IMG/VR virus record: IMGVR_UViG_3300025673_000019
Location: 1-25,199 of that record
Length of the DNA stretch: 25,199 nucleotides
Strand: one strand, 5' to 3'
Source of the DNA: a virus
Taxonomy: Duplodnaviria > Caudoviricetes
Part shown: one piece after another, positions 1,694 to 25,089 of the stretch
How positions within the stretch are numbered: the stretch's first letter is position 1
Layout: every line of letters begins with the position of its first letter
Made by a program: the position numbers and the translations under genes
Notes under the pieces: generated by a model
The model's database searches: none
Seen by the model: the letters and a program-made list of their open reading frames with translations, nothing else
Told to the model about the DNA's origin: nothing

Positions 1694-3049
1694 ATGGCTA
1701 TTACAGAAAAGAACGATATTTATAACGGCAACGCAAGTTTGTGGGAATTTTACTTGCGAAGTTTCTTAGGTGGCAAGGATTATCAGGACGGTGATTATTT
1801 AATTAAATACACCCTTGAGGATGCAGATGAATATAACAAGCGCATATCCTTAACACCAATCGACAACCATTGCAGAAATGTCGTGCAGATATTTTCTAGC
1901 TTTGTCTGGCGCGTACCACCAAAGAGGGATTTGGGTAATTTAGGCGATGACCCAGCCATTAACGCTTTCCTTGCGGATGCTGATTTAGATGGGCGCGAAC
2001 TGAATGAATTTATGCGTGATGCACAAATCTGGTCTAGTGTTTATGGGCATTGTTGGCTGTTGGTTGATAAACCACCATCAAATGCTAAAACCAGAGCAGA
2101 AGAATTAGACCAAGATATTCGCCCTTATATCCAGTTAATTACACCAGAGAATGTATTTGATTGGCGTTATGAACGTGCTGAGTCTGGGCGATATGTTTTA
2201 ACTTATCTGAAAGTCAGGGAATGGGTTGAGGGTGATGAGCAGTTCTTTAGGGTTTGGACTAGCGATAAGATTGAGGGTTGGAGTGTTATTGGTGACGAGG
2301 AAAAGAAAGTCATCGACATTGATAACCCATTGGGCATGATTCCAGCCGTCTGTTTATACGCTCAACGCTCACCAATTCGCGGCACAGGTATTTCAGACAT
2401 TGGCGACATTGCTTTAAAACAGAAAAGCATCTACAACAAGCTATCTGAAATTGAGCAATTAATCCGTATTAGTAACCACCCGTCACTGGTTAAAACACAG
2501 GGTACAGATGCCACTGCTGGGGCTGGTGCAATCATTCAGATGGATGACGACCTTGATGCTGGGTTGAAGCCGTATTTATTGCAACCATCTGGAACTAACC
2601 TAGACGCAATCAGAGCGTGTATAACGGACGAAGTTGAAGCGATTAACAGAATGGCACACATGGGCGCAGTTCGCGCCACTGAAGCGCAGACAAAGAGCGG
2701 TGTGGCATTACAGACTGAATTTCAGTTGTTAAATGCAAGGTTATCTGAGAAAGCGGCATTATTAGAGTTAGCAGAGGAACAAATCTGGGATATATTCGCG
2801 AAATGGCAAGGCATTGAAAACCAAGTGCTGACCGATTATAACAACGACTTTGATTTGCATGATTTAGGTGCTGAACTGGATTTCTTACAACGCGCCAAAG
2901 CATCTGGGATTAAATCAACGGCATTTGTTCACGGTGTTGATGAGGGCATTGCGAAACTGGTTCTTAAAGACACGGAACTTGATGAAGCACTAAGCCAAAT
3001 CAAGGCAAATACCATTGTAGTCGGTGAGTTTACTGATGGCATCGAATAA
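1694..3049 (+). CDS. Portal protein
   Basis: 451 aa directly after terL. 'DNPLGMIPAV' and 'KSGVALQ' motifs resemble SPP1-like portals. Confidence 0.9.
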   Translation: MAITEKNDIYNGNASLWEFYLRSFLGGKDYQDGDYLIKYTLEDADEYNKRISLTPIDNHCRNVVQIFSSFVWRVPPKRDLGNLGDDPAINAFLADADLDGRELNEFMRDAQIWSSVYGHCWLLVDKPPSNAKTRAEELDQDIRPYIQLITPENVFDWRYERAESGRYVLTYLKVREWVEGDEQFFRVWTSDKIEGWSVIGDEEKKVIDIDNPLGMIPAVCLYAQRSPIRGTGISDIGDIALKQKSIYNKLSEIEQLIRISNHPSLVKTQGTDATAGAGAIIQMDDDLDAGLKPYLLQPSGTNLDAIRACITDEVEAINRMAHMGAVRATEAQTKSGVALQTEFQLLNARLSEKAALLELAEEQIWDIFAKWQGIENQVLTDYNNDFDLHDLGAELDFLQRAKASGIKSTAFVHGVDEGIAKLVLKDTELDEALSQIKANTIVVGEFTDGIE

Positions 3050-13911: not shown

Positions 13912-14664
13912 ATGAGTCAGGCTACTGATTATGCCATTGCAAATGCCACAGGGTCGGGCGTTCGGGCTGATGTCAATTCTGTGCTGTCGGCAATCGTCAC
14001 AAAGAATTCAGGCACAGCAGAACCATCTTCCACTTACAGTTATATGTGGTGGGCAGATACAACCGCTAACAAGCTAAAAATCCGCGATGGTGCGAATACA
14101 TCATGGCTGGTTATTGGCGACTTAGATGCGGCTAATTTTAACTTAACTGATGCTTTTTCTAACGTGACCTCTGCAGTTACACTGACTGACGCACAGTTAA
14201 ATAATACCGTGTACTTGGTAAGTGGTACTAAGATGGTTTTCTATGAAGCAACGCCACCGACAGGATGGACGCAAGTTACGACCCACAACGACAAAGCATT
14301 AAGAGTTGTTGCTGGCATTGGTGGTGGTTCTGGTGGCACAACTGGATTTGCTAATGGGAATGGCGCATTTACACATACACATTCAGATAGTTTTTCTATT
14401 AGTAGTCATGTGTTGACTGAAAATGAAATGCCTGTGCATAAGCATTACTCTTTCGGTAACGCTAATGCGGCATGGGTTGCTGGCACTATGCCAAATTACA
14501 GCAATAATATGGGCGCAACAGGTGGCGAAGATTACGATAATTATTACTACGGCACAAGCGACACAGGTGGTGGTGCTGGTCACGTTCATGGGGTTTTGGG
14601 TTCAGTTTCATCCACAACCATATCCCCTGCTTATGTAGATATTATTATTTGTTCTAAATCATAA
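13912..14664 (+). CDS. Short tail fibre with collar-like segment and HxH needle motifs
   Basis: N-terminal attachment motif 'VRADVNSVL...WWADTT', collar-like 'GTKMVFYEATPPTGW', then HTH, HKH and HVH, ending 'PAYVDIIICSK'. Confidence 0.8.
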   Translation: MSQATDYAIANATGSGVRADVNSVLSAIVTKNSGTAEPSSTYSYMWWADTTANKLKIRDGANTSWLVIGDLDAANFNLTDAFSNVTSAVTLTDAQLNNTVYLVSGTKMVFYEATPPTGWTQVTTHNDKALRVVAGIGGGSGGTTGFANGNGAFTHTHSDSFSISSHVLTENEMPVHKHYSFGNANAAWVAGTMPNYSNNMGATGGEDYDNYYYGTSDTGGGAGHVHGVLGSVSSTTISPAYVDIIICSKS

Positions 14665-15119: not shown

Positions 15120-15437
15120 ATGGCAGACATTTATTTATCAAACGACAATTTATTAAGCGTATCTAGTTTACGCAACTCATCATCTGGCTCATTTATGAAT
15201 AACGCCACTGTGACCGCTACGTTAAAAGATACTGGCGGCACAAATGTATCTGGGCAGACTTTCCCTGTCACGCTTTCATACATAGCTGATTCTGATGGCA
15301 ACTATCAAATGACTTTAGATAATGCATTATCAATGGTCGAAGATACAACTTACATTGCTACTATAACGGCAACCGCGTCATCTGGCTTATATGCCGAATG
15401 GGAAATGACACTAACGGCTAAAAAGAGGACTGCGTAA
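15120..15437 (+). CDS. Small beta-sandwich virion protein, possible fibre anchor
   Basis: Thr/Ser-rich with an Ig-like alternating pattern ('ATVTATLKD', 'DGNYQMTL'). Lies in the fibre region. Confidence 0.55.
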   Translation: MADIYLSNDNLLSVSSLRNSSSGSFMNNATVTATLKDTGGTNVSGQTFPVTLSYIADSDGNYQMTLDNALSMVEDTTYIATITATASSGLYAEWEMTLTAKKRTA

Positions 15438-16525
15438 TGGCTGATAAAAAATTAAGTGAACTGACCGAAACAACAACTGGTTCAGACACCATGCAACTTT
15501 TTGTGAATGACGCTGGTGTTAGCAAGAGAATAACGCGCGGCAATTTAATCTCTGGCGCGGTGTCTGCGGCAACAACAACGTATTCAATTAAAGCTGGAAC
15601 ACAGATTGGCGGTGCTGGACTTGAACTAGATGCTGGCGGTGCTGGCACTGGAACGGATACCATAAAGCTAATGGAAAGTGGTTCTGCAACAGTAACCAGA
15701 ACTGATGCGGATACCATTACGATTGGCGCGACTAATACAACGTATGTTGATGCAACCACAAGTGTTGCTGGGTTAATGTCAACATCAGATAAAACCAAGA
15801 TTGATGGAGTGGCAACCAGTGCTAATGACTACACCCACCCCAATCACTCTGGCGATATAGTTTCTGCGGCTGATGGAGCAACAACCATCCAAACTGGCGC
15901 AGTAGACATTGCAATGCTATCTGCAACAGGAACAGCGTCAGGCACAACTTTCTTACGGGGAGATAATACTTGGGTTGTTCCAACAGACACTAACACAGAC
16001 ACCAAGTGGGATGGTGGTACAACTGGTTTAACTGCGGCAACTGGTCGCACATCATTGGGTCTTGGAACTGCGGCAACATCTGCGGCAACGGCTTTTGAAA
16101 CTGCTGATACAGACATATCTAAAACAGACGTAGCTGAAACACGCACAGCATCAATCAACATGGCAGACAATGTGTTGCAAAAACCAGAGTTAAAAGACTA
16201 CGCTGAAACGGTTAATGCTATTGGTTCAATTGGTGGTGGCACACAGGACATTAACTTAGAATTGGGTAACGTAGTCACGGCAACGGTAGACACTTCAACC
16301 ACAACTTTCACCTTTTCGGGTATGCCAGCAACAGGGAAAGGTGGTGCGTTCACATTGATATTAACCAATGGTGCTTCACAAACGGTAAACTTTCCACTCA
16401 CTGTAGATTGGGCGGCTGGAACAGCACCAACGCTCACCACTGCTGGGATAGACGTACTGACTTTTACCACAGTGGACGGTGGCACGATTTGGTATGGTAT
16501 TGCATCAGGGCTGGCGATGGCATGA
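15437..16525 (+). CDS. Second fibre protein
   Basis: GAGGA SD. 'MADKKLSEL' N-terminus, fibre motifs 'ATTSVAGLMSTSDKTKIDG' and 'GRTSLGLGTAAT', and a C-terminal beta domain ending 'DGGTIWYG'. Confidence 0.8.
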   Translation: MADKKLSELTETTTGSDTMQLFVNDAGVSKRITRGNLISGAVSAATTTYSIKAGTQIGGAGLELDAGGAGTGTDTIKLMESGSATVTRTDADTITIGATNTTYVDATTSVAGLMSTSDKTKIDGVATSANDYTHPNHSGDIVSAADGATTIQTGAVDIAMLSATGTASGTTFLRGDNTWVVPTDTNTDTKWDGGTTGLTAATGRTSLGLGTAATSAATAFETADTDISKTDVAETRTASINMADNVLQKPELKDYAETVNAIGSIGGGTQDINLELGNVVTATVDTSTTTFTFSGMPATGKGGAFTLILTNGASQTVNFPLTVDWAAGTAPTLTTAGIDVLTFTTVDGGTIWYGIASGLAMA

Positions 16526-18618
16526 GTATAGAAAAGAAATTACTGGGTACGACACCTGTATCTGGTGCGGTAGACCCAGAGGGTGTTAGCTTTGACGGGA
16601 CTAATGATTATCTGAGTCGGAGTTCTGACCTCACGGGTAATGCTGATGGAAAGACTTTTACGTTTAGTGCTTGGGTGTATGGTACTGGGGGAGGAACTAT
16701 ATATCATAGTGGAGGGGCTGGGTTTACCGATGGTATAAGTATTCATTTTGAAGCAAGTGGTGAGCTAAATATTAAGATGGATAACCCATCAGGTTCTACA
16801 GTTTTTAGTGTAGAGCATGGGGGTGCTATGCCTTTAAATACTTGGAATCATCTACTCATATCGTGTGATATGTCATCCACTTCAAATAGACATATTTATG
16901 TATCTGATGCGGCATTAGGGAATAGCTACTTAACTTACACAAATTCAGATATAGATTTCACATCAACTGACCATTCTGTCAATAAACTGAACAAAATCAA
17001 AGGCAGACTAGCACACGTTTTCCTAGACTACACCTACCGTGACCTATCTACAGAATCTAACCGCAGATTGTTCATAGACGCAGACGGCAAGCCATCAAGC
17101 ACCATCCCATCAAGTCCTATTCTATACCTACCCATGACTGATGCGGCTACGGCTGGGTCGAACTCTGGAACGGGTGGTGACTTCACGGTGAATGGGGTAC
17201 TGGATACTGCTGGTCGTGCGCCTAATCAAGACAATTGTAGTGCGAGTGTGTTTGATGGGTCGAATGATTATTTATCGGGTAGTCCGTCTGGAATGGTGGA
17301 TGGAGGTATCTTTTCTGGGAGCGTTGTGGTTAACCCCAGAGTATTCTCTTTTCAAGGTCACGTTATAAAGTCAACCAGTGAAAGATGGGGACTACGTTTC
17401 TATGGCTCAACAAGTTGTGAGATTACGGGATACACATCAGGTGCTGTGAAAATACTTGATTGTCAGGTTGATAATATAGTTGCCGGTAGGATATTACATA
17501 TCAGTTTCAGTTTTGATTTATCCGACACAGGTAAACGCCACTTATTCGTAAATGGTGTTGATGCTTCCCCCGCGTACAGTGTTTATACCGCAGGGAATAT
17601 TGATTTTACCAACAACCCTGTAGGGGTGGGAGCAAGACCCACTGCCGTAGAGTTTTTAGAGGGTGATATAGGAGAACTCTACTTCGACACATCCTACATA
17701 GACCTAGCAACAGACAACCCATTCTGGGATGCAGACGCTAACCGACCTAAACCAGTTCGACAAGTTATCTCAGAAACAGGAACAACTCCACTGATTGCAT
17801 TACCACTGCAAGGTAATGATGCTGGGAATAATCTAGGTAGCGGTGGTGACTTTACTGTCAACTCTGGTCCATACACAGGGGCGAGGGGTGGGAGTGAGTT
17901 TTGGGCGAGGAGTGCTGATTTTAATGGGAGTAATGGGTATTTAAGTCGGAGTAGTGCGCTGACAGGTTCTAGTGATGGAAAGCAAGTTACATTGGTATTT
18001 GCTTTTAGTGGGACATCTAATAAGTATATTATTGATTTAGAAGACGCAACTGGAACAACCTCCACAACCCGTTTTGGTGTCTGGGCGCATTACACCAACA
18101 ATAAAATATTTGTAGATGCTTACAATGGCTCAGAAACGAGGATTTTAGATTTCGATTTTGGTACAACACTAAACACTAATCAGACATATATCGTGATGAT
18201 TAGTATTGACATGAGTAACACATCTAAGCGTCACACCTATATTGATGGAGCATCTGAAAGCGCAACATATACAACGTACACTAATGATACTCTAAAACTC
18301 ACTCAAACCAATACGGGAATAGGGGCAAGACTAGACGCAAGCCTTCCAGGGAGCTACTGGAATGGAGATATAGGTTTTATGTACTTCAATAATTCTTACA
18401 TAGACTTCTCCCAAGAATCCAACCGCAATCTATTCGTAGACCAGTTAGGTTATCCAAAAGATTTAACCCCAGCAATTGAAGCTGCCACTATCGCAGACCC
18501 ACTCATCTACATGAAGTTCGATGACACCAGTGCCTTGGGTACTAACTCAGGGACGGGTGGCAACTTTACAGTCAACGGCACAGTAACCGCTGGTGCTGAT
18601 GTAGACCCTAACGCATAG
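16522..18618 (+). CDS. Putative receptor-binding adhesin with three tandem LamG/concanavalin A-like domains (698 aa)
   Basis: ATGA overlap gives start 16522. Three repeats begin FDGTNDYL, FDGSNDYL and FNGSNGYL and end N(S/L)G(T/S)GG(D/N)FTVN. 'FTFSAWV' and 'LNTWNHL' are LamG-like. Confidence 0.8.
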   Translation: MSIEKKLLGTTPVSGAVDPEGVSFDGTNDYLSRSSDLTGNADGKTFTFSAWVYGTGGGTIYHSGGAGFTDGISIHFEASGELNIKMDNPSGSTVFSVEHGGAMPLNTWNHLLISCDMSSTSNRHIYVSDAALGNSYLTYTNSDIDFTSTDHSVNKLNKIKGRLAHVFLDYTYRDLSTESNRRLFIDADGKPSSTIPSSPILYLPMTDAATAGSNSGTGGDFTVNGVLDTAGRAPNQDNCSASVFDGSNDYLSGSPSGMVDGGIFSGSVVVNPRVFSFQGHVIKSTSERWGLRFYGSTSCEITGYTSGAVKILDCQVDNIVAGRILHISFSFDLSDTGKRHLFVNGVDASPAYSVYTAGNIDFTNNPVGVGARPTAVEFLEGDIGELYFDTSYIDLATDNPFWDADANRPKPVRQVISETGTTPLIALPLQGNDAGNNLGSGGDFTVNSGPYTGARGGSEFWARSADFNGSNGYLSRSSALTGSSDGKQVTLVFAFSGTSNKYIIDLEDATGTTSTTRFGVWAHYTNNKIFVDAYNGSETRILDFDFGTTLNTNQTYIVMISIDMSNTSKRHTYIDGASESATYTTYTNDTLKLTQTNTGIGARLDASLPGSYWNGDIGFMYFNNSYIDFSQESNRNLFVDQLGYPKDLTPAIEAATIADPLIYMKFDDTSALGTNSGTGGNFTVNGTVTAGADVDPNA
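16591..18579 (+). repeat. Three intragenic domain repeats of about 220 codons
   Basis: The repeat-opening Phe codons are at 16591, 17251 and 17920 (spacing 660 and 669 nt). Flanks are conserved and cores divergent. Confidence 0.9.
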
Positions 18619-18638
18619 CAGACAAAGGAGAAATAACA

Positions 18639-19088
18639 ATGCTATATCTAAAAGCAATCAACAACGTAGTAGAGCAATATCCATACTCACTAGGTCAGTT
18701 GAGAAAAGACAATTCAAATACATCGTTTCCAAGACAGCCGAGTTTAGCTGACCTTGCTGAGTTCGATGTATACCCCGTAACCGAAGTAACACCCACGCTT
18801 GCTGACGGTGAGAAGTTAGTCAAAGTCTGGACACCAACCCTAGTATCGGGCGAGTGGGTACTGCCACACCAAGCAGTCGCTAAGACCACAGAGGATTTAG
18901 CAACAGAGTCAGAAGTCGCATGGGCGAATCTTAGAGAACAGAGAGATAAGCTACTCGCTGAAACCGATTGGACTGCATCGACAGATGTGACCATGTCGGC
19001 TGAGATGACAGAATACCGAAAGTTACTCAGGGATTTGCCAGCTAATACAGCAGATGTATTTAATCCTGTGTATCCTGAGAAACCTTAA
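18639..19088 (+). CDS. Tail fibre assembly chaperone
   Basis: AAGGAG SD. 'WANLREQRDKLLAETDWT...YRKLLRDLP...YPEKP' is the typical fibre-assembly chaperone motif. Confidence 0.85.
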   Translation: MLYLKAINNVVEQYPYSLGQLRKDNSNTSFPRQPSLADLAEFDVYPVTEVTPTLADGEKLVKVWTPTLVSGEWVLPHQAVAKTTEDLATESEVAWANLREQRDKLLAETDWTASTDVTMSAEMTEYRKLLRDLPANTADVFNPVYPEKP

Positions 19089-19869: not shown

Positions 19870-19985
19870 AAGCGTATTGGCGTTTCTTTGTAGAAGTGGT
19901 TTTTTATATTGGACTCGCAATTCTAGGAAGTTCTCTTGCGGTTTGGATTTTGCAAAATATTTTTGAGGTGTTTTTTTATGGATAA
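19866..19985 (+). CDS. Putative 39-aa single-TM peptide
   Basis: GAGG SD at 19855 and TTGA start/stop overlap: MKAYWRFFVEVVFYIGLAILGSSLAVWILQNIFEVFFYG*. Confidence 0.55.
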   Translation: MKAYWRFFVEVVFYIGLAILGSSLAVWILQNIFEVFFYG

Positions 19986-20718
19986 AAATCGTGCTTATGA
20001 AATGGCGTTGCTTTCTGAGAGGGCATATCTGCCGCTCAATGAATTTCAGCAACTACACACGGACAGGCGGTTTAGCTTCCACTCTGTTTTTTATAACCAG
20101 TTTTATACCGTCTGGACAGCAACAGAATTAATCTTTGTTTTTCGCGGAACGGAAATAACCGATTTTTCAGATGTTAAAGCCGATTTGAAATTTAGGCTAA
20201 CACCAGTTACATCAGACAATGAAGCTGGCAAGGTGCATCGAGGGTTTAAGAAATCACTGGATATGGTTTGGGAATCGCTGATGGAAGATTACAACCGATT
20301 GTGTGATGGTCGGCACGTTATATTTACAGGTCATTCGCTGGGGGCGGCAATGGCAACTTTAGCCTTTAGTCGGTTTGATAGCTATGGTGCTGAACTCTAC
20401 ACGTTCGGTTCACCTCGCGTTGGCAATGCCGATTATGCGGCGGTGCTGAACTTCAAGCACAGGGAGCGAATTTTCAGATTTCGAAATCATAACGATATTG
20501 TTACACGGCATCCCATGTCGTTCTGGAGTTATCGTCATGTCGGGATGTGTTTTTACTTTGATGGTGATGGTGCTTGCGTAACAAATCCAAGTTTCTGGCA
20601 TCGGTTAAGACAGTTTTGTGCTGGTATGTTTGAGGGTTTTTTAGACAAGAAAATTGATTCACTTGCTGACCATTCAGTTAGCAATTATGTTCGCTTAACA
20701 AAGGAGTTAGATAAATGA
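19978..20718 (+). CDS. Class 3 lipase (alpha/beta hydrolase)
   Basis: FRGT, VHRGF, nucleophile elbow TGHSLGA, YTFGSPRVGN, NDIV (Asp) and DH (His). GAGGTG SD supports ATG 19978. Confidence 0.93.
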   Translation: MDKNRAYEMALLSERAYLPLNEFQQLHTDRRFSFHSVFYNQFYTVWTATELIFVFRGTEITDFSDVKADLKFRLTPVTSDNEAGKVHRGFKKSLDMVWESLMEDYNRLCDGRHVIFTGHSLGAAMATLAFSRFDSYGAELYTFGSPRVGNADYAAVLNFKHRERIFRFRNHNDIVTRHPMSFWSYRHVGMCFYFDGDGACVTNPSFWHRLRQFCAGMFEGFLDKKIDSLADHSVSNYVRLTKELDK

Positions 20719-22281: not shown

Positions 22282-22323
22282 GAAACCCGATTGCGTTGTC
22301 CGATGCTTTCGGGTTTTGCTTTT
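22282..22323 (+). terminator. Intrinsic terminator-like hairpin abutting the integrase stop
   Basis: GAAACCCGA...TCGGGTTTT followed by GCTTTT; possibly bidirectional. Confidence 0.55.
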
Positions 22324-23324
22324 CAAATATCTAAATCTTCAGCTTTTAAATTAATGTAACGCGACAAGGCGGCAGATGATTTATGCAAGCTGACCAGTTT
22401 TAATTGTTCAGACGATAATCCGCGTTCAGCTAAGATTGAAATACCGTGATGACGCAAATCATGAAAGCGCAAATCTTTGATGTTGAGGGCATGGCAAGCG
22501 CGTGTGAAATATGTGCCAAGCGTTTTGTAATGAAGTTTCGGAAATATAAATTCACTTTCTCGCGGCTGTTTGTTGATTATCTTCCGCGCTGACTTTGGCA
22601 AAGCGGCTCGCTTGGTTAACCCTTTCTGGCTTGGGTGCTTTAAATTGCGAACCAGAATAGTATTATTCTGAATATCATCCCAACGTAAACGTGTTATCTC
22701 AGACTGCCTACGAGTCGAATAAATCGCAAACCACATAATGTATAGCATATAAGGTGGAAAATGCCGTGAGAGTAGCCACATTTCCTCTGGGGTGGGTCTG
22801 CGTGTACGCTCCACAGACTTAGCAACCAATCTGGTGCTTTTTAACACTTTGCGAGCAGAATGAAACAGGGTTAAATCAACAACTAAAGAATCATCCACAG
22901 CTTGCATGGTGCTGATGACAGTCTGTAACCAAATCAGGTCAATATTAGCCGTTTGCGGTAAACATTCATCATTTCTACTCCTTATATATAGGACAACATC
23001 CGCGATGGTGAGCGCATTAACATCTATTTCGGCAATGGATGAACGTGCCAAACGGTTTAAATCACTGAGTTTTGAGCGTCCAGAAATGTTAAAGGTGTTT
23101 AAATAATTGTGGATAACTTTCTTGATTGGATAAGATGTTGTGCTGTGGTGGACAATGCCATGCTGGATTTCAGCCTGACGTTTAACCGCCCAATCTTTTG
23201 CAAGCTGATAACGTAGGAATGAACGCTTTTCACGATGGATAACACGCTTATTTTTAGTGATTTTTAGGGCGGCATCATAGATAATTACGCCATCGGAACG
23301 CTTGCGTTTGGTTATATGCGCCAT
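22323..23324 (-). CDS. int: Tyrosine recombinase, dusA-associated integrase type
   Basis: Catalytic R (RRQSEI), K (NLKHP), HxxR (FHDLRH), H (SLHKS) and Y (LSRY). N-terminus 'ITKRKRSDG...REKRSF...AKDW'. Adjacent to a dusA 5' fragment. Confidence 0.93.
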   Translation of the reverse strand: MAHITKRKRSDGVIIYDAALKITKNKRVIHREKRSFLRYQLAKDWAVKRQAEIQHGIVHHSTTSYPIKKVIHNYLNTFNISGRSKLSDLNRLARSSIAEIDVNALTIADVVLYIRSRNDECLPQTANIDLIWLQTVISTMQAVDDSLVVDLTLFHSARKVLKSTRLVAKSVERTRRPTPEEMWLLSRHFPPYMLYIMWFAIYSTRRQSEITRLRWDDIQNNTILVRNLKHPSQKGLTKRAALPKSARKIINKQPRESEFIFPKLHYKTLGTYFTRACHALNIKDLRFHDLRHHGISILAERGLSSEQLKLVSLHKSSAALSRYINLKAEDLDI

Positions 23325-24792: not shown

Positions 24793-25089
24793 TTAAAACG
24801 GAATGTCATCATCAAATGTTTTTGCAACTGCTGGTTGCTGTTGTGGGGGTTGCGCTGGTGCTTGACCATTCTGTTGTCGCGGTTTCGGGTCAAACATCGA
24901 CACGATAATTGAATCACCACCGCGCTCATCTGGAACGCCAGCTGGGTTAAACCATTTGTGCATTAAGATAAATTTGCCACCATTATCTGATGACATTACC
25001 GCGCCTATATTCTGATAACGGTTCTTTTCTTCACCTTGTTGATTGGTATAACTGCCTGTTTTAACTGCTAAGTCATAAAGTTTTGCCAT
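24793..25089 (-). CDS. Small single-stranded DNA-binding-like protein
   Basis: GAGGA SD before ATG 25089. Beta-rich core, Gln/Pro linker and SSB-type acidic tip FDDDIPF. Confidence 0.7.
   Translation of the reverse strand: MAKLYDLAVKTGSYTNQQGEEKNRYQNIGAVMSSDNGGKFILMHKWFNPAGVPDERGGDSIIVSMFDPKPRQQNGQAPAQPPQQQPAVAKTFDDDIPF

Follow-up and report, generated by a model that had tools for sequence, protein, structure and literature searches.

We found that a tail-module gene in the window, a 25,199-base tailed-phage contig (IMG/VR record IMGVR_UViG_3300025673_000019), exchanges its three hypervariable cores with related phage genes at conserved junctions, and that a polar skew in silent sites is confined to these junctions, is most extreme at the core edge and ends where homology ends. 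The gene encodes a protein of 698 residues with three tandem LamG domains, and its parts are listed in Table 1. The skew concerns the share of third codon positions that hold G or T (G+T3), which is high immediately 5′ of each core and low immediately 3′ of it. The signature is real, strong and reproducible, and it lies on a form of module shuffling that is already known.

An earlier note, made from the sequence by eye, had reported six counts of third positions along this gene, and all six were exact in the frame of the open reading frame (ORF) 16522-18618 (G or T in 28/31, 31/35 and 21/21 codons of the stretches before the cores, A or C in 35/41, 19/19 and 30/38 after them). We assessed the skew without chosen intervals by comparing the variance of G+T3 over 20-codon stretches with that in 2000 synonymous shuffles. 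The gene gave z = 11.5, with 0/2000 shuffles as extreme, and the same test of the same gene gave z = 1.1 for G+C at third positions and z = −1.1 for purines. When zones were instead fixed from amino-acid conservation among homologs, G or T ended 73/90 codons in the G/T zones vs 17/83 in the A/C zones (z = 7.4, 0/20000 shuffles). The skew was missing from the core genes: the other 27 of the 28 window genes had z ≤ 3.3 (portal 3.3, the rest ≤ 1.6) and were flat, with G+T3 of 0.45-0.62. The note had also offered the recurring peptide TVNG as an internal control, G/T-ending before another domain and A/C-ending after the last. A middle copy had been omitted from this control (ACT GTC AAC TCT at 17854, though a domain follows), but the control held at the family level, where the last copy had G+T3 of 0.32 and the internal copies had 0.55 and 0.50.

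Relatives of the protein numbered 840 among 8000 candidates scored, the best of them 63% identical. From 162 loci we obtained 112 distinct genes, of which 74 full three-domain genes, the window gene included, were codon-aligned; three near-duplicates were removed from this set in later analyses. Across the profile of the 74 homologs, each repeat was keto-rich (G/T) at its opening and amino-rich (A/C) at its close around a divergent core, as had been proposed for the window gene. G+T3 was 0.69-0.74, 0.79-0.86 and 0.72-0.74 immediately 5′ of cores 1, 2 and 3, and 0.27-0.30, 0.22-0.36 and 0.38-0.41 immediately 3′ of them, and it was flat within the cores (about 0.53, range 0.47-0.59). The G/T zone exceeded the A/C zone in 72/74 genes. 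Between cores, G+T3 climbed with position across junction 1 (Spearman 0.70, 89 columns, residues 161-250) and junction 2 (Spearman 0.62, 76 columns), and the block after the last core was without a gradient (Spearman −0.04, 69 columns). The third positions concerned are far from fixed: the major letter in the flanks reached 0.61-0.69, conserved columns with a monomorphic third position numbered 5/58 and 0/70, and third positions between distant clades were near-saturated (0.34 vs 0.31 expected). On a junction tree, which was a quick tree only, the skew was spread throughout, strongest in the clade of the window gene and lost in several long-branch members; junctions were homogenized within clades, and skew correlated with the presence of close junction partners (rho 0.33, p = 0.005). 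In the family loci, the median shuffle z was ∼0 for capsid, portal and other core families and 4.4 for 110 family members.

The family is carried by T4-like myoviruses and by other unrelated backbones, and the recombination genes differ among carriers, with T4-like neck genes in locus L055 and an ERF annealase in locus L047. Cellular-genome loci accounted for only 2 of 28 pattern matches, both on contigs of metagenome-assembled genomes (MAGs). Two contigs that carry family members (L163, L164) had been assigned by binning to MAGs of Gracilibacteria and Helicobacteraceae. At L067 (5332-7477 and 8219-8983) the family gene is split into two ORFs, and a nearby tail-fiber gene has z = 8.9 and a run of 22 codons all ending in A or C.

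The exchange of cores was evident from the pattern of identity among homologs. Median DNA identity was 0.32-0.37 in cores and 0.55-0.63 in flanks. The identity matrices of the cores were uncorrelated with one another (Spearman 0.02-0.04 and −0.08), and those of junctions 1 and 2 correlated at 0.57; many gene pairs shared a single core at 93-100% identity while their other cores were 26-45% identical. These matrices and shared single cores bear out the claim that the cores are much more variable than the flanks and are exchanged independently of one another. Of the ends of near-identical tracts that fell within junctions, 11/13 lay in the half adjoining the shared core. This was a hand count that omits core-internal breaks as well as two pairs in which identity picks up again, that rests on pairs that are not independent, and whose resolution is limited by the density of single-nucleotide polymorphisms (SNPs). 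Sequencing runs, analyzed as assembled contigs, gave the same picture. Contigs of other runs diverged from the window at 16661-16681 and rejoined it at 16997-17014 around core 1, and diverged at 17915-17949 and rejoined at 18397-18400 around core 3. Contigs from seven runs matched the flanks and skipped or lacked the cores, and in run X1, which may be the source of the window, the unitigs of the window sequence broke at the junctions. The other six runs (X2-X6 and X8) hold 6-8% of the sampled words and are uninformative about habitat. An assembly artifact was considered and ruled out, as the same architecture was present in cultured phages and in independent runs. The variation consists of whole-core replacement with insertions and deletions. 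The conserved junctions are the seams of core exchange between phages, and cores reassort singly across unrelated backbones.

The earlier note had suggested repeating the analysis on other phage receptor-binding genes. We further examined other tail genes; the skew recurred in a second family, DUF7483, and was not clear by eye in the 15 T-even gp38 genes considered below. DUF7483 is a neighboring family that is non-homologous to LamG. We kept 80/598 confirmed relatives and analyzed 57 non-redundant genes. Their conserved blocks between cores open at G+T3 of 0.28, 0.22, 0.13 and ∼0.44-0.49 and close at 0.83, 0.88, 0.92 and 0.69; these zones were set by eye, and an automatic definition of blocks confirmed 3/4 internal junctions and split the fourth. 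The G/T zone exceeded the A/C zone in 57/57 genes. The block after the last core, at 0.25-0.58, was again without a G/T peak. DUF7483 cores were uncorrelated, with mosaic pairs making up 6/1596, and one pair (L025 and L115) displayed one clean replacement of a single core, running from a G/T peak to an A/C trough. The same pair has a second short replaced tract at residues ∼555-600, in the conserved C-terminal block, that involves no core. Among cultured Roseobacter phages, which had been held out, 3/4 followed the rule: CRP-4, CRP-13 and CRP-1 had G or T in 40/52, 39/52 and 39/52 codons of the G/T zones vs 17/65, 22/65 and 28/64 of the A/C zones. The cultured phage CRP-603 encodes one LamG domain of the family fused with DUF7483 domains (gp52, L296:19863-22571); given this fusion, the two families are not fully separate pools. 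Beta-propeller repeats had G+T3 of 0.80 before the variable loop and 0.31-0.35 after the loops, in a sample of 43 repeats from 6/7 loci examined that are not independent. Tandem beta-propeller-like repeats of 52-53 codons at L114:2612-4189, L282 and L289 have the same polarity around short variable loops. In L055:6001-9000, a family member of a T4-like myovirus that lies on the same contig as L006, a beta-propeller is inserted after domain 1, with a G/T run before the insert and A/C-rich codons after it. A tail-region gene of a Thiohalocapsa phage (gp49, L297:22831-24999) has strong G+T3 heterogeneity (z = 5.4).

The base composition of the zones was informative about the level at which the skew arises. 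In both families, composition at 4-fold degenerate sites is mirrored between the two zones, so that the dyad symmetry described in the earlier note was upheld. In LamG genes the shares of A/C/G/T were.17/.08/.29/.45 in keto zones,.37/.26/.08/.29 in amino zones and.35/.14/.14/.37 in cores; in DUF7483 genes they were.13/.05/.48/.34,.27/.42/.07/.23 and.32/.15/.15/.38, respectively. On the strand that lies 5′ of a core the skew is chiefly toward G, and the strongest shift there is A>G (G at 2-fold purine sites 0.65 vs 0.32). The purine share in DUF7483 keto zones was 0.61 vs 0.47, and flanks were GC-richer than cores at silent sites. Silent sites outside the wobble position shifted as well: T at the first position of Leu codons was 0.47 in LamG A/C zones vs 0.75 in cores (15 vs 25 columns, p = 1e-4) and 0.26 vs 0.72 in DUF7483, and Ser was encoded by AGY in the G/T zones (0.64 vs 0.31). 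The skew also continued past the gene: spacers after LamG genes were 68% A+C (29 spacers) vs 50% (63 others), the first 30 codons of the next gene had G+T3 of 0.34 (87 genes) vs 0.49 (363), and the end of the previous gene had a slight G/T excess (0.56 vs 0.50), although these sequences are homologous and not independent, so that p-values overstate the differences. The length of the gradient followed that of the junction, at ∼90 codons in LamG and ∼24 in DUF7483. Since the composition is mirror-symmetric, non-wobble silent sites are affected and the stop codon is crossed, the skew is likely to be a DNA-level rather than a translational feature.

Taken together, these data incline us to read the skew as the accumulated footprint of a strand-polar, G-favoring resolution of mismatches at the ends of exchanges. 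G-containing mismatches are stable. In each exchange, one strand, its 3′ end directed toward the core where homology is lacking, would pair with a diverged junction; this end would then be trimmed back and extended on the partner. Mismatches in which the trimmed strand holds G, and less so T (G:T, G:G, G:A), would survive, whereas those in which it holds A or C (A:C, C:C, C:T) would be removed and recopied, and the new strand would gain G/T regardless of which parent had carried it. This would happen to the top strand on the left side of a core and to the bottom strand on its right side, giving the dyad, and tracts that start anywhere in a junction and end at the core edge would give two opposed gradients. 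Such a mechanism would explain why the skew peaks at the core edge and stops abruptly together with homology, and why the two gradients are opposed and the last block is flat, and neither a dedicated enzyme nor a reverse transcriptase or invertase would be necessary. There is a precedent in yeast for polar chew-back of 3′ ends by a proofreading polymerase (PMC9477423; this and the other papers cited by PMC number are cited for the part of their text available to us), and phage recombinases are reported to accept diverged DNA and to escape mismatch repair (PMC3945230).

The earlier note had attributed the skew to homology-directed swapping with a directional mismatch bias, such as G:T tolerance during single-strand annealing. 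Independent swapping of the cores was supported, and tolerance of G:T in single-strand annealing as the cause was not demonstrated: the skew is dominated by G rather than evenly keto, amino-acid-changing positions are unshifted, other mosaic boundaries in the same loci are flat, and gp38 has no clear pattern.

A number of observations weigh against biased resolution at exchange ends. The direction of recent changes, polarized in triplets, was balanced at 90% identity (10:8 and 6:6), and at 85% identity changes ran away from the skew (48:18 and 55:31), a bias that parsimony itself yields. Amino-acid-changing transitions were unshifted in a transition-pair test (p = 0.69), and the first positions of Leu codons in LamG G/T zones had no enrichment of T (0.54, 4 columns). 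The skew tracked closeness to the window gene (rho 0.76) more strongly than it tracked close junction partners. It was weak in CRP-9 (32/51 vs 35/67), in CRP-603 gp52 (z 1.3) and in Thiohalocapsa gp54, and T-even gp38, a family known to be swapped, had no clear pattern by eye in 15 genes. At homology ends within other genes of the same loci, G+T3 was 0.46-0.55 (141 and 150 ends). In mouse-cell single-strand annealing, the type of mismatch barely affected the bias of repair, as far as the available text goes (PMC9001825). Finally, because the backbones of the carriers differ, no single recombinase is implicated. The flatness of other genes in the same loci also led us to reject the skew as a general rule of all mosaic boundaries.

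Several other explanations would also lead to a skew of this kind. Under selection for recombinogenic flanks, G/T-rich 3′ tails would be better at loading RecA-like proteins or could anneal to partners of greater divergence, and the flanks would hitchhike with the cores gained. The same polarity and the dominance of G are predicted, and RecA filaments are most stable on TGG repeats and least on CCA (PMC3763553), which we count in its favor. Private changes at looser thresholds ran against the skew, as fixation bias would give, and the huge standing diversity of cores, with 840 relatives at 63% identity or less, fits as well. We nevertheless regard such selection as unlikely, as second-order selection would have to act on a large number of silent sites one by one, and it is disfavored both by the skew in backbones with different recombination genes (L055, L047) and by the lack of a fixed motif in the flanks. 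Less likely still is strand-specific mutation, in which the strand 5′ of the core would often be single-stranded, or resynthesized with errors, during exchange and gain A>G and C>T changes. A>G is indeed the strongest shift on that strand, at the strictest threshold flux was balanced and rates per site were unequal (in small numbers), and silent mutations have been reported near T-even swap sites (PMC3157838). The skew, however, returns abruptly to baseline on entry into the core (0.86 to 0.55), although exposure or synthesis ought to persist there; cytosine deamination would favor T, yet G gains most and the flanks are GC-richer than the cores; and pure transitions cannot raise the purine share of the DUF7483 keto zones.

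Codons ending in G or U are wobble-read, and for this reason a pacing of co-translational domain folding, with slow G/U-ending and fast A/C-ending codons, is a serious rival. The G/T peaks coincide with predicted inter-domain linkers, first and second positions that change the amino acid are unshifted, and the codon shift of the A/C zones correlates with the codon preference of major capsid genes (rho 0.48 and 0.43). The shift of the G/T zones, however, was not anticorrelated with that preference (0.07, −0.03), and the A/C zones are C-rich at 4-fold sites, in contrast to the T-rich capsid genes (0.49), and favor CTA. Domain 1 begins with a G/T zone although no earlier domain precedes it that would need to fold, and the last domain is followed by no such zone; the peaks do not lie 30-40 codons past the boundary; gradient length differs four-fold between the families; the skew extends into non-coding DNA and the next gene; and other long multi-domain genes are without skew. 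We consider this rival improbable on balance. An inherited accident, in which a single ancestral codon pattern was duplicated and then frozen by conservation of the flanks, would agree with the homogenized junctions within clades and with the peak of the skew in the clade of the window gene, but it is very improbable given third positions that are polymorphic and near-saturated between clades and the same polarity in non-homologous families. Finally, G/T and A/C are complementary in composition, which raised the idea that the two flanks of a core form the arms of a hairpin in RNA or single-stranded DNA, or are what is left of an inverted repeat. In eight genes and with RNA parameters, duplexes of cognate flanks had mean z of −0.59, 0.32 and −0.46, not better than shuffles that kept composition or than non-cognate pairs (−1.1 to 0.13), and no inverted repeat within the LamG gene was present among the 25 longest of 157 listed. 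On the duplex energies we rejected this idea, which is scarcely credible.

Diversity-generating retroelements and shufflons or invertons diversify phage receptor-binding domains. The results agree with the proposal that core swapping here is free of reverse transcriptase and invertase. No reverse transcriptase was present among the 31 window ORFs scanned with Pfam, on a contig that possibly does not cover the complete genome, and recombination sites of fixed sequence were not found; the largest direct repeats of the window are the 70%-identical domain copies themselves, rather than a template and variable repeat pair. Fixed sites and silent inverted cassettes of a shufflon, invertase or integron were likewise not seen: the third positions of the flanks are polymorphic, tract ends are dispersed and no such inverted repeat was listed. 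By the features tested, the system is neither such a retroelement nor a shufflon. Tyrosine recombinase genes were found in the window and in L069; nothing ties the one in the window to the LamG gene, with the neighbors of other loci partly scanned.

One of the closest known systems is that of the T-even adhesins (gp38), in which hypervariable segments lie between glycine-rich conserved motifs and exchange occurs at or near these motifs without reverse transcriptase or invertase (PMC3157838). The LamG gene likewise has hypervariable segments parted by conserved blocks, and its exchanges also end in or near these blocks, within the resolution set by SNP density. It differs in that whole cores of 100-130 residues move across unrelated phage backbones and in the polar silent-site skew of its flanks, which is not clear in the 15 gp38 genes. 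Homology to gp38 or gp37, with glycine-rich motifs or His boxes, was not found: the protein matched no PHROG family and only LamG in Pfam. Relaxed recombination by phage annealases of the Red-beta/Rad52-like kind similarly leaves near-identical mosaic tracts between partly diverged homology, but the LamG flanks carry a directional composition, and the word "skew" is absent from the available text of that report (PMC3945230). As in GC-biased gene conversion (PMC9001825), silent sites in the segments that recombine have a higher GC content than those around them; here, however, the bias is strand-polar, with G on one strand, and flips within 70-270 nucleotides, and rather than a strand-symmetric gain of G+C we found G and C segregated to opposite ends of the junctions. 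Mismatch assimilation through proofreading by yeast Pol-delta shares a gradient of correction from the 3′ end that is independent of mismatch repair, but it is eukaryotic and reaches ∼40-55 nucleotides, with no base preference seen in the available text (PMC9477423). In Chi or TG-rich RecA-loading tracts (PMC3763553) and in the keto or GC skew of replication, a G/T-rich strand also runs 5′ to 3′ toward a point, whereas the LamG skew flips three times over the 2.1 kb of a single gene, only in the conserved junctions and without any fixed motif; nor was a replichore-wide skew of replication strands seen, the 27 other window genes being flat. Swapping at conserved motifs without reverse transcriptase or invertase was already known (PMC3157838, in its available part), and only the polar skew appears to be new. 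We found no description of a dyad silent-site skew at exchange seams, and no papers on DUF7483, in the open-access literature searched.

The window encodes terminase, portal, capsid, tape measure, distal tail, central fiber J, tail fibers and lysozyme. The LamG protein matched Pfam Laminin_G_3 (PF13385) with E = 1.5e-16 and 61.3 bits vs a cutoff of 27.6. An AlphaFold2 model built from 96 homologs (mean predicted local distance difference test score 84.8) has three beta-rich units joined by low-confidence linkers at residues 233-239 and 453-458, and its Foldseek matches were phage ConA-like and LNS/pentraxin domains. The profile match and the beta-sandwich fold place the protein among the LamG/ConA-like lectins, so that its domains are predicted to bind sugars, and its predicted fold and its position between tail-fiber and tail-chaperone genes suggest that it may be an adhesin for a host glycan or receptor. 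In marine phages, ConA domains are present among putative receptor-binding proteins (PMC7029224). The tail-fiber gene upstream has no skew pattern inside (z = 0.2).

Table 1. Coordinates of the LamG gene, its zones and cores, and the adjacent genes in the window.
Feature	Positions	Strand	Description
LamG tail-module gene	16522..18618	+	698 residues; three tandem LamG/ConA-like beta-sandwich domains, putative adhesin
G/T zone 1, conserved left flank of core 1	16582..16671	+	residues 21-50; family G+T3 0.69-0.74, conservation 0.75-0.80
Hypervariable core 1	16687..16986	+	residues 56-155; median pairwise DNA identity 0.37; G+T3 ∼0.5-0.59
A/C zone 1, start of conserved junction 1, right flank of core 1	17002..17121	+	family G+T3 0.27-0.40
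Rest of junction 1, left flank of core 2	17122..17271	+	G+T3 rising from 0.44 to 0.86; G/T zone 2 peak 17212-17271
Hypervariable core 2	17332..17661	+	residues 271-380; median pairwise DNA identity 0.34; G+T3 0.47-0.57
A/C zone 2, start of conserved junction 2	17674..17796	+	family G+T3 0.22-0.45
Rest of junction 2	17797..17931	+	G+T3 rising from 0.50 to 0.74; G/T zone 3 peak 17872-17931
Hypervariable core 3	17962..18351	+	residues 481-610; median pairwise DNA identity 0.32
A/C zone 3, conserved end after last core	18382..18618	+	G+T3 0.24-0.47; G/T-rich nowhere
Spacer and first 30 codons of next gene	18619..18731	+	A/C skew persists beyond stop codon in homologous loci
Tail-assembly-chaperone-like gene downstream	18639-19088	+	Pfam Phage_tail_APC
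Upstream tail-fiber gene	15437..16525	+	PHROG tail fiber E=2.3e-9; overlaps LamG start codon

Elsewhere in the window, G+T3 is mildly heterogeneous in the portal gene (1694-3049; z = 3.3, p = 0.005 without correction for the 28 genes). Positions 13957-14260, in a tail gene of 250 residues, are skipped by a contig of run X1, suggesting another variable segment; the skew of this gene has z = 0.8. A class 3 lipase gene (19978-20718) lies between the tail module and the lysozyme. On the opposite strand, the tyrosine recombinase gene (22323-23324, Phage_integrase E = 8e-15) lies just past the lysis genes, 3.7 kb from the LamG gene, and a similar recombinase is encoded at L069:10982-11935. An ORF of 98 residues on the same strand (24793-25089), which ends in an acidic DDDIPF tail and has PHROG matches without function, presumably resembles a single-stranded-DNA-binding protein.

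It has long been asked how phages that have diverged from one another trade their receptor-binding modules, and the intermediate of the exchange is difficult to catch in nature. With its peak at the module edge, the skew limits what this intermediate can look like, both as to which strand's 3′ end faces the core and as to the extent of pairing. The switch from A/C to G/T across a conserved block also allows exchange seams to be located without an alignment in at least two very large families of environmental tail proteins, and because the cultured Roseobacter phages CRP-4, CRP-13 and CRP-1 carry the skew, it is open to experiment. We tentatively suggest that aquatic phages may record an undescribed strand-polar, G-biased conversion at the ends of module exchanges, one that would turn the flanks of adhesin cores into G/T-rich, 3′-facing "universal" pairing arms; the process would be self-reinforcing and shared across families, and both the cassettes and the polarity of the intermediate would be readable from a single genome. 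If the skew is a footprint of swapping, it would reveal a strand-directional bias in phage recombination, and if it stems from biased conversion, it would be a strand-polar counterpart of GC-biased gene conversion.

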